Of a stretch of 64,000 nt of DNA, positions 37,790 to 38,713 are shown piece after piece; position 1 is the first letter of the stretch; every line of letters starts with the position of its first letter. The position numbers and the translations under genes were made by a program. This stretch comes from Chlamydiia bacterium. GTDB lineage: Bacteria; Chlamydiota; Chlamydiia; Chlamydiales; Rhabdochlamydiaceae. The stretch covers positions 160,001-224,000 of the forward strand of contig CAWDOQ010000019.1 of assembly GCA_963804085.1 (NCBI GenBank), read 5' to 3'. The notes beneath the pieces are model-generated. The model searched no databases. It was not told the origin of the DNA and worked only from the letters and a program-made list of their open reading frames with translations.

Positions 37790-38038
37790 AAGATTTCCGA
37801 CGAATAATTTACAGCATTTTAGAGAATAACTGCATGTCAATTTTTTATTGAAAAGTGGGCGCTCTTTATGCGAGAAACTTTGCATAAGTTTTTATTCAAC
37901 GCAAAGGTGCAGAGGTGCAAAAGACGCAAAGCAAAAATATCTGCCCGATATTTTTGACTTCCTGGAAGGAATGCAAAAGAAGGAAGAGAGGATTTTAACC
38001 AGGAAGTGGTGACAAGCTGCGAAACTTATGGGTAACAG

Positions 38039-38104
38039 TATGCCCGTGCGTGCCCGAATTAATCCGGATCGGGCAAAGGCACGGGCATGGGCATGGGCAC
38101 GTTT
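38039..38104. repeat. Hairpin element, family A, immediately 3' of the NHLP gene
   Basis: tgcccgtgcgtgcccgaattaatccggatcgggcaaaggcacgggcatgggcatgggcacgt. Confidence 0.85.
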
Positions 38105-38429
38105 ACTGGCAAAGATGCGCTTGGGTCCAAGTCCAACACGGTGCGGTATGGGCCATGTCTGTGGCATTACCTGCGCCAGCCGCGAATTTTTCCAGTTCTT
38201 GGTCCGACATTTCTTCTGAGCGAGCCACACAGACTGGTAGGATAAACGTGTGGATCTTTTGTGTATCTTCAACGACGCGCACTTCAAACTGTCCTTGGAG
38301 ATCATATCCCATCTCTTTGAATGCAGCTTTTGGATTTTTCAACAGTTTTTGTTTGTATTGCGGGTCTTTCCACGCACGCGCGATAATTTTTGCGCGAAAT
38401 TTTTCAAAGTCTTGGGGTTTCTTTGCCAT
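38103..38429 (-). CDS. NHLP (nitrile hydratase-like leader peptide) RiPP precursor, 108 aa
   Basis: KIIARAWKDPQYKQKLLKNPKAAF...VRVVEDT...FILP...EMSDQELEKFAAG leader signature, followed by a short Cys/Thr/Trp core. Confidence 0.88.
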   Translation of the reverse strand: MAKKPQDFEKFRAKIIARAWKDPQYKQKLLKNPKAAFKEMGYDLQGQFEVRVVEDTQKIHTFILPVCVARSEEMSDQELEKFAAGAGNATDMAHTAPCWTWTQAHLCQ

Positions 38430-38713
38430 GGCTTTGTCCTTGATTTTTCTTGTTAGTCTATGCGTGGTCAGCTTCCCCCGCAATTGTCACATTAGTTAAA
38501 CGTAATTTGTTGCTCAATCGCTTTTTCTGACCATCTATGAACCCAACAGGAAAACAATTTACCACTTTGTGGTACAAAGATTTGGGTAGCAATACCTCTA
38601 TTTACTTTTGCATTCCTTCCATAGAGTCAAAAATATCGGGCAGATATTTTTGCTTTGCGTCTTTTGCGCCTTGCGCCTTTGCGTTGAATCTCCTCAAACG
38701 CTGAGTTGGCGAG

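Follow-up and report, generated by a model that had tools for sequence, protein, structure and literature searches.

A precursor-peptide gene at the centre of a nested palindromic repeat in a tRNA-adjacent spacer of a chlamydial genome

The window analysed here is a 64,000-nt stretch (contig C19, positions 160001–224000) of a metagenome-assembled genome (MAG) of a Chlamydiia bacterium of the family Rhabdochlamydiaceae (2.13 Mb in 24 contigs, 91% complete, 4.97% contamination). Positions without a contig number are those of the window, C-numbers denote contigs of this MAG and L-numbers extracted loci. Beside tRNA-Asp, the window carries a gene predicted to encode a precursor of a ribosomally synthesised and post-translationally modified peptide (RiPP) with a nitrile hydratase leader peptide (NHLP), and this gene is enclosed by the arms of a long inverted repeat. 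The locus is a genuine non-autonomous palindromic repeat holding a gene at its centre. It is slightly more likely than not that the gene came as a one-off into the middle of a mosaic of nested palindromic repeats in an insertion-prone spacer. The locus is mainly of interest as a clean example of how palindromic families nest in each other's centres, which also take up insertion sequence (IS) elements and, once, a gene, and of how a tRNA-adjacent spacer gathers lineage-specific DNA.

The arms belong to subfamily E2 of a dispersed palindromic family, E, and occupy nt 37894–37992 (left) and nt 38595–38689 (right). A repeat finder returned a 76-nt pair (37913–37988 / 38596–38671; 89% complementary) and an outer 18-nt pair (37894–37911 / 38672–38689; 94%), and BLAST aligned arm with arm over 98 nt at 89.8%. 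When nt 37885–38700 were folded as single-stranded DNA, the arms paired end to end (z = -15.2 relative to 20 shuffles). The inverted repeat 37894–37979 / 38605–38689 given in a preliminary description, which had been made from the sequence alone, is therefore real, with arms about 90% complementary. Read from the outside inwards, the left arm starts with approximately four tandem 8-nt units, after which come a small hairpin and then a conserved block.

Immediately inward of the arms are the two ends of a second palindromic family, F. On the left, nt 37993–38027 comprise the E inner junction and the left end of F, including its terminal small hairpin (37998–38010); this 35-nt region is 91% identical to the F-bearing copy beginning at C10:62408, and the F remnant within it, about 26 nt long, breaks off in the loop of F's second small hairpin. 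On the right, nt 38563–38594 contain about 19 nt of F and the other inner junction, and the corresponding small hairpin (38561–38573) scores as terminator-like on the minus strand. Each of the two terminal hairpins differs at one position from the F motif, the search for which permitted at most one mismatch. Next to the left F end is a recurrent 19-nt module (38028–38046), which overlaps the start of a GC-rich heptad-repeat hairpin of a third family, A (38040–38105), and is part of the repeat mosaic rather than of any unique cargo. The A hairpin directly follows the stop codon (38103–38105) of the NHLP gene (38103–38429, minus strand; 108 aa), the 5' region of which (38430–38562, minus strand) is unique in the genome. 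The layout can be written E[F[module + A hairpin + NHLP gene + 5' region]]. The coding sequence (38106–38429) is intact, and the protein scores 72.5 bits against TIGR03793 (cut-off 50.9) and matches Pfam NHase_alpha at 4.7e-13. The preliminary description had placed only the NHLP gene, its upstream region and a 3' family-A hairpin between the arms; all three are there, but the F end hairpins and the 19-nt module had been missed.

Unique cargo is limited to the gene and its 5' region (38103–38562), no second copy of which was found in the genome. As stated earlier, reading of the sequence at the arm ends reveals no target duplication, and none of the open reading frames (ORFs) between the arms encodes a transposase. 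There is likewise no recombinase ORF within 34.5–40.5 kb of the window, a region where public contigs at a depth of 2–3 cannot show orientation variants. A consensus scan of the NHLP 5' region found no sigma-70-type promoter, and an Rfam search over nt 35500–39200 gave, beyond two tRNAs, five other matches, all far under their family gathering scores. Both inner junctions are covered at about 99% identity by contigs of two public soil sequencing runs (37890–38044 in X1 and 38494–38706 in X3), which speaks against misassembly, though the two runs may be the MAG's own source. Four runs listed no joint from 37893 to 38690, which would link the outer flanks, and none from 38027 to 38563, which would link the F ends; this result carries no weight since only contigs, at a depth of 2–3, were available. 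The joints that were listed (e.g. 37944 to 38640, with four letters between) represent either the small hairpin found in further E copies or generic A hairpins from a relative of about 90% identity in run X2. Among the sequencing runs queried for the locus, no RNA run was listed as containing it and the best DNA share was 0.15.

Searching the genome by BLAST with both arms and with an 'empty' copy in the window (see below) gave 21 merged places. After four fragments of 29–37 nt were left out, 17 E loci on ten contigs were examined. Seven have both arms with a short centre, two have both arms with F inside (C10:62322–62798 and C2:171974–172440), one is a left arm plus F (C19:331456 onwards), six are truncated or solo, and one, the NHLP locus, has both arms enclosing a gene. 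The claim of a dispersed, non-autonomous hairpin family, occurring both with a short centre and with a central insert, is borne out by this census. The short forms measure about 210–320 bp and lack ORFs, and copies are 80–90% identical to one another. Tabulation of the loop contents, which had been proposed as a check on gene capture, turned up no other gene-loaded copy, the three other inserts all being F; the preliminary description had itself named such an outcome as counting against its proposal.

An alignment of 25 arms separated two subfamilies, for which the labels E1 and E2 were coined in the current analysis: in E1 the left and right arms are of distinct types, making the element asymmetric, while E2 is symmetric. 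Within this alignment each arm of the NHLP locus has the other as its nearest neighbour (0.92; next best 0.88–0.89), as is also true of the two arms of the C10 copy (0.94), and in both NHLP arms the small hairpin has an extra C in its loop that is specific to this copy. These findings make it unlikely that unrelated half-arms bracket the gene by chance, the alternative that the preliminary description had entertained, and on the arm alignment the two are judged to be a true pair derived from one element.

Direct repeats adjoining the arms are missing from the NHLP locus and from the copies on C10, C12 and C2. The copy at C17:62907–63117, an E2 element without F that displays the uninterrupted centre, has a direct repeat of about 22 nt, but this is set back from the ends. 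No parent IS with E or F ends was found in the genome: by BLAST both arms match only short intergenic copies, and the ends of the IS66, IS3 and IS200-like elements are different. A 4.9-kb segment bracketed by E copies on C13 was considered as a possible element and dismissed, as it contains citrate synthase, malate dehydrogenase and other housekeeping genes. In public genome contigs and metagenome contigs a 28-base arm pattern had no match, although an exact pattern of this kind would miss diverged copies.

The 'empty' hairpin described previously at nt 35807–36056 also proved to be real (z = -9.8 for nt 35798–36065), but it belongs to the different, asymmetric subfamily E1. A degenerate family-A hairpin encloses it, in the spacer of the convergent gene pair RfbA and YitT. 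Over 271 nt it is 88% identical to C13:30149–30410, indicating that E1 was copied as a unit.

Family F is about 230 bp long and stands alone at C17:49962–50198, C7:12116–12346 and other sites. At C10:62322–62798 and C2:171974–172440 it occupies the exact centre of E2, the C10 composite forming an almost perfect palindrome of 480 bp (z = -32.5), and at C19:331456 it lies beside a lone E2 left arm. In the stem of the terminal hairpin, solo copies of F have G-C where nested copies have A-T, the two sides of the stem having changed together. Its orientation is the same in the three copies that share the inner left junction type (C10, C19:331456 and the NHLP locus). At the NHLP locus about 26 nt of the left end and 19 nt of the right end remain, at nearly mirror-image break points, and the interior of approximately 190 nt has been replaced. 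The core of the 19-nt module was found at seven loci (window 38028–38046, C15:94564, C15:94380, C17:49912, C17:30629, C3:139 and C2:237290), where it always adjoins A-type or E-type arms or, in two cases, immediately follows a left half of F. At C15:94564 it is followed by an A hairpin, exactly as at the NHLP locus. The module starts with ATG, which in several places is the beginning of a very short reading frame extending into the neighbouring arm.

Nesting of palindromic repeats in each other's centres is a general rule of this genome. Several non-autonomous palindromic families were distinguished, namely A (heptad-repeat GC hairpins), E (about 260 bp), F (about 230 bp) and G (arms around an IS200-like transposase gene). 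Family A is represented by 217 arms, forming 83 adjacent pairs, of which 69 have loops shorter than 60 nt; the pairs with long loops are the cases of nested repeats and IS insertion given here, together with cases of small genes. Two E copies lie within the loops of A pairs (C8:30677–31009 and C16:21963–22408), and the A pair at C19:235120–235683 encloses another palindromic family. IS elements enter the same repeats. Taken together, insertions recur at or close to the centres of the palindromic repeats or within their small hairpins. An IS66-type copy lies inside an A arm with an 8-bp duplication, and an IS3-family element (HTH_Tnp_1 and rve) splits F at C2:235700, where it is flanked by a short duplication; its insertion point is 1–5 nt from the F position at which the NHLP block starts. 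Insertion of IS elements into the loops of repetitive extragenic palindromic (REP) units is a known phenomenon, as is the cleavage of long palindromes at their centres by SbcCD. The possibility that A arms are the terminal repeats of the IS66-type element was dismissed, since the IS has its own ends and its 8-bp duplication falls inside the A arm. Two IS66-type copies, 99.7% identical, are present on C17 (155791–157837 and 177818–179847), both in family-A arms; one has a clean 8-bp duplication, and the other has inverted flanks, as expected if the copies had recombined.

The site was compared with the 30 nearest genomes, every one of which is from another genus; the only DNA they have in common with a 1.9-kb stretch at this site is the two tRNA genes. 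These are tRNA-Asp (GTC; 38780–38854, minus strand), which is oriented like the NHLP gene and has its 3' end at a distance of 90 nt from the right arm, and tRNA-Val (TAC; 38873–38945, minus strand). Among nine tRNA-Val/tRNA-Asp loci from other genera of the same family, eight have YitT adjoining tRNA-Asp, with SurE and a 138-aa ORF on the other side of the tRNA pair. The gap between YitT (a membrane protein gene; 36095–36994, minus strand) and the tRNA is 1,785 nt here versus about 70–90 nt in L008 and L010. The extra DNA consists of a complete family-A hairpin (37051–37171; 44 nt, 82%), a 209-aa ORF (37163–37792, minus strand), the E[F[NHLP]] unit and a solo family-A arm between the unit and tRNA-Asp (38716–38755). 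The 209-aa ORF, which is part of the inserted block, has no family match and is lineage-specific: none of 60 genomes of the taxonomic family contained it, and it has four distant paralog or pseudogene matches in its own genome. The NHLP gene, the arms and the 209-aa ORF are all absent from this site in the relatives examined. Similarly, the RfbA–YitT spacer that holds the empty E1 copy is 326 nt long here and at most about 35 nt in the three of three relatives that reach RfbA. Given the short spacers of the relatives, both E copies of the window are lineage-specific additions.

A plausible course of events is that an E2::F composite was resident in, or landed in, the insertion-prone spacer 3' of tRNA-Asp, and that the interior of its F was subsequently replaced by the block consisting of the 19-nt module, the A hairpin, the NHLP gene and its 5' region. 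The replacement would have occurred by breakage or recombination at the loop of F's small hairpin, and its retention would have been favoured if, as expected, interruption makes a palindrome more stable. The anatomy, the repeat census, the nesting, the IS hits and the lineage-specific nature of the block are observed; this order of events is one that we infer, as is the view that the arms have no present function. Several considerations weigh against the one-off account. The gene had to reach the site by some means, and a repeat family that has clearly multiplied is an obvious vehicle. The E2::F composite may itself have spread as a unit, in which case E could multiply with a 230-bp central insert. 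The placement of a gene in a hairpin loop recurs in this genome and its family, with S23p-type genes in A-type arms and the IS200-like transposase in G arms (see below), and the position of the NHLP gene is perhaps not accidental. The arms have kept about 90% complementarity and could be under constraint, and both the proposed break and the sequence of steps are reconstructions made against relatives from other genera.

Such a vehicle would be a true cargo-carrying non-autonomous element, in which an E2::F composite took up the NHLP cassette elsewhere and was moved in trans to its place beside tRNA-Asp, the donor having since been lost or diverged. In keeping with this, the arms are a genuine pair from a multiplied family, E2::F composites are found at three to four loci with F in constant orientation relative to the inner junction, and the whole block is absent from this site in eight of nine related genera. 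Two other hairpin families of the genome occur in loaded and empty forms (G with the IS200-like transposase, A with S23p-type genes). Mobile insertion cassettes are a described kind of element (in part of PMC3913671), and an association of lanthipeptide precursors with TnpA_REP, caveated by its authors, has been reported for picocyanobacteria (within bioRxiv 10.1101/2020.03.09.984088). Were the loaded unit mobile, it would offer a concrete mechanism for scattering and multiplying substrate genes in RiPP systems with one enzyme and many precursors. Set against these points, only one of the 17 loci is loaded, target duplication was not seen, no IS has E or F ends and the BLAST matches of the arms are all short intergenic repeats. 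The segment between the two E loci on C13 contains housekeeping genes, the sole Y1 transposase is flanked by unrelated arms, and none of the six other NHLP paralogs has the arms. Copies that are 80–90% identical make the family an old one that is not visibly active, and the neighbouring 209-aa ORF entered the same spacer without arms. Nothing points to movement of the loaded unit, with a single-copy cargo, bracketing repeats at none of the six paralog loci and none of six foreign loci, and an arm pattern unmatched in public collections. A mobile cassette is on this evidence unlikely, and the proposal in the preliminary description that the element moves gene cassettes and disperses RiPP precursors finds no support. 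A wider version would make hairpins with arms of tandem 7–8-nt units (A and E here, other units in sister genera) a class of non-autonomous carriers in environmental Chlamydiae, multiplying with their loop genes (S23p-type, a 62-aa ORF, NHLP), with E2::F[NHLP] a real mobile cassette; this we consider unlikely, but if true it would provide a route for spreading lanthipeptide precursors away from a single LanM.

It is very unlikely that the arms serve the gene, whether as an RNA stem of about 125 bp in a tRNA-Val/tRNA-Asp read-through transcript that is cut by RNase III and so releases or stabilises the NHLP mRNA, or as sites of a recombination that inverts the cassette with respect to the tRNA operon. 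The gene does lie directly downstream of both tRNA genes in the same orientation, the consensus scan of its 5' region gave no sigma-70-type promoter, and arm pairing is very stable; Coxiella's intervening sequence (IVS) is also a stem with an ORF in its loop that is excised by RNase III (a point taken from part of PMC4990558), and S23p-type genes in this chlamydial family retain bracketing arms even in cases of a different repeat unit. However, on the coding strand a small terminator-like hairpin separates the gene from the right arm, the six other NHLP paralogs have no arms, there is no adjacent recombinase gene, and the single instance offers no covariation to examine. Still less probable is an origin from two separate E2::F insertions flanking a pre-existing NHLP gene, each minus its gene-proximal half, or from an assembly artefact of a repeat-rich MAG. 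Truncated or solo forms are common (6 of 17 E loci), but two insertions plus two matching half-deletions would be demanded, whereas each arm is the other's nearest neighbour, the two have copy-specific changes in common, and F's terminal hairpin is kept on both sides with break points near mirror positions. An artefact might be suspected from the 24 contigs, the 4.97% contamination and a near-duplicate contig (C7 versus C19:343 kb), yet the inner junctions are both present at about 99% identity in contigs of public runs, which may be the MAG's own source. A one-off gene at the centre of a nested repeat remains the preferred account, with a small part of the probability left to none of these readings.

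The closest described kinds of element are mobile insertion cassettes, repeats of the miniature inverted-repeat transposable element (MITE), REP and bacterial interspersed mosaic element (BIME) type, and IVS elements, and the NHLP locus falls short of the defining features of each. Mobile insertion cassettes are inverted repeats around a passenger gene that has its own expression signals, with no transposase inside (described in part of PMC3913671). Like MIC231 of Bacillus cereus and the qnrD and qnrS2 mic elements, the locus has inverted repeats bracketing a passenger gene and no transposase. Those cassettes, on the other hand, have short IS-type terminal repeats shared with known IS elements, usually a target duplication, and in some cases have been moved in trans, whereas here the arms are palindrome halves of about 100–125 nt, a duplication and a cognate IS are both missing, and the unit is present once. 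Evidence of transposition is accordingly missing: the unit is single-copy, there is no duplication, and the arm pattern is unmatched in public collections. Bacterial MITEs are small, non-coding, intergenic, multi-copy, hairpin-forming and often truncated (as given in part of PMC10969869), a character that family E shares with the QMITEs of Coxiella, Correia elements and ERIC (enterobacterial repetitive intergenic consensus) elements. E agrees with MITEs in terminal inverted repeats, size, copy number and the absence of a transposase, but has neither a target duplication nor a parent IS; its copies are palindromes over their whole length rather than short terminal repeats around an unrelated core, and one encloses a gene.

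REP, REPIN (REP doublet forming hairpins) and BIME mosaics, used here in their customary definitions, resemble the present case in that several extragenic palindromic families are combined into mosaics and a single-copy Y1 transposase lies between its own hairpin arms, as with a REP-associated tyrosine transposase (RAYT, TnpA_REP). They differ in that the Y1 protein of this genome scores as IS200/IS605, its G arms are unrelated to A, E and F, and E units are much longer than REPs; a RAYT gene would be flanked by the dispersed palindromic units E, F or A, and this one is flanked by G arms. The Coxiella IVS measures 428–444 nt; its ends form a 28-bp stem, its loop contains an S23p ORF, and it has tandem heptamers and is excised by RNase III (according to part of PMC4990558). 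The 23S rRNA IVS of Coxiella and Leptospira and the NHLP locus both have a gene in the loop of a terminal-repeat stem of a few hundred nucleotides, and the S23p-type (PF05635) genes of this genome and family share the stem-loop architecture and tandem heptamers. The NHLP element, in contrast, has another gene and other arms and is not in rRNA, nor are the S23p cassettes of the five loci tested. Its loop ORF is the NHLP precursor rather than a PF05635 protein, and what it has in common with IVS elements is just the arrangement of a stem with an ORF. Since a duplication, a cognate transposase, a second site and a PF05635 ORF are all missing, the locus was not assigned to any of these kinds.

The 108-aa product is predicted from its sequence to be an NHLP-leader RiPP precursor of class II lanthipeptide type. 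A Gly-Ala-Gly motif marks the end of the leader, and the 21-residue core that follows contains two Cys and four Thr. Seven NHLP paralogs are present at seven loci (window 38106–38429, C19:110027, C19:79950, C2:337547, C17:162981, C12:24225 and C22:74268), and when aligned their leaders are conserved and their cores unrelated. An alignment of all seven was too little conserved for a profile search, and one of three sequences was used instead. Paralog N2 lies 3.3 kb from the only LanM-type locus (DUF4135 plus LanC-like; C19:~75636–78168, L072), and the gene in the element lies about 120 kb from that locus, consistent with the earlier claim of a self-contained cassette separate from its maturase. 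The only C39-peptidase ABC exporter locus (C22:~68983–70897, L073) is 3.4 kb from paralog N6. Each of these two loci reads as two overlapping ORFs in the assembly, which could be due to real frameshifts in a decaying system or to assembly errors. No YcaO gene was found in this 91% complete genome. Whether other NHLP genes are flanked by the same arms had been raised as a check, and 0 of the 6 other paralogs has a bracketing inverted repeat of at least 20 nt; at paralog locus L019 there is one 28-nt repeat pair, but one of its arms lies within the coding sequence. Relatives of the NHLP gene come from Chlamydiae/Chlamydiales MAGs, and at 0 of 6 such loci in other Chlamydiae MAGs was a bracketing repeat present. 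Against metagenome contigs the NHLP protein gave one locus, at 47% identity (L016), and this too is without a bracketing repeat.

One enzyme locus together with seven scattered precursors that have conserved leaders and unrelated cores is a layout like that of prochlorosin-type systems. It differs from them in having an NHLP rather than a Nif11 leader, a chlamydial host, only seven precursors, and split LanM and exporter genes. Scattered single lanthipeptide precursor genes have been described for picocyanobacteria (in part of PMC10783134), where such genes have been reported to be associated with TnpA_REP transposases, a proposal that carries a post-submission caveat by its authors that causality is unproven (both in part of bioRxiv 10.1101/2020.03.09.984088). 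As to how prochlorosin precursors spread, the TnpA_REP proposal, with its caveat, was the sole one found. Among the literature results inspected, a part of the matches, no title or abstract combined Chlamydiae with lanthipeptide, and the string 'Chlamydi' occurs 0 times in PMC7268733. The prochlorosin-like layout in a chlamydial MAG is a by-product that is perhaps worth more than the main finding.

The same may be said of the cassettes of S23p-type genes outside rRNA, with their co-varying heptad-repeat arms. All three distinct full-length PF05635 genes (S23p, a four-helix-bundle family also named '23S rRNA intervening sequence protein') of this genome are bracketed by A-type arms: C10:17479–18057, C19:343628–344056 and C10:160178–160727. 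In sister genera, 9 of 11 PF05635 loci (L074–L084, from ten genera) are bracketed by inverted arms of tandem 6–7-nt units, and in two of these nine the arms are made of a different repeat unit. The gene family is patchy, being present in 10 of 40 family genomes searched. Rfam gave no rRNA match around the cassettes in the five loci tested. The more than 80 'empty' family-A hairpins of the genome may be the non-autonomous form of an IVS-like S23p cassette. The second of the cassettes listed recurs at C7:6785–7214 as a 99% identical duplicate, and was dismissed as evidence of mobility because its flanks are duplicated too. Contig C7 as a whole (14.5 kb) appears to be a near-duplicate (98–99%) of C19:~336–351 kb, which suggests strain heterogeneity or redundancy within the MAG. 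A further small gene in a family-A setting is found at C16:15556–15898, where a 62-aa ORF that has no Pfam match and follows a Shine-Dalgarno-like sequence lies between solo A arms.

The sole PF01797 Y1 transposase gene of the genome (C17:57827–58168; Pfam 5.6e-27) scores 70.8 bits with an IS200/IS605 model and 34.4 with the REP-associated model, below the cut-off of 80. It sits between 98-nt family-G arms that are 97–100% complementary (C17:57686–58364; L065:1374–2038). G arms occur at five loci and have no similarity to E, F or A, and deletion derivatives of the G-armed transposase were recognised at window nt 5979–6500, at C2:164211–164494 and on C16. Of the transposase gene, the decayed window copy retains just the 3' end, and it contains an additional palindromic insert. 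Across from it, beyond a 461-aa membrane protein gene (4466–5851), is a solo arm (4317–4374).

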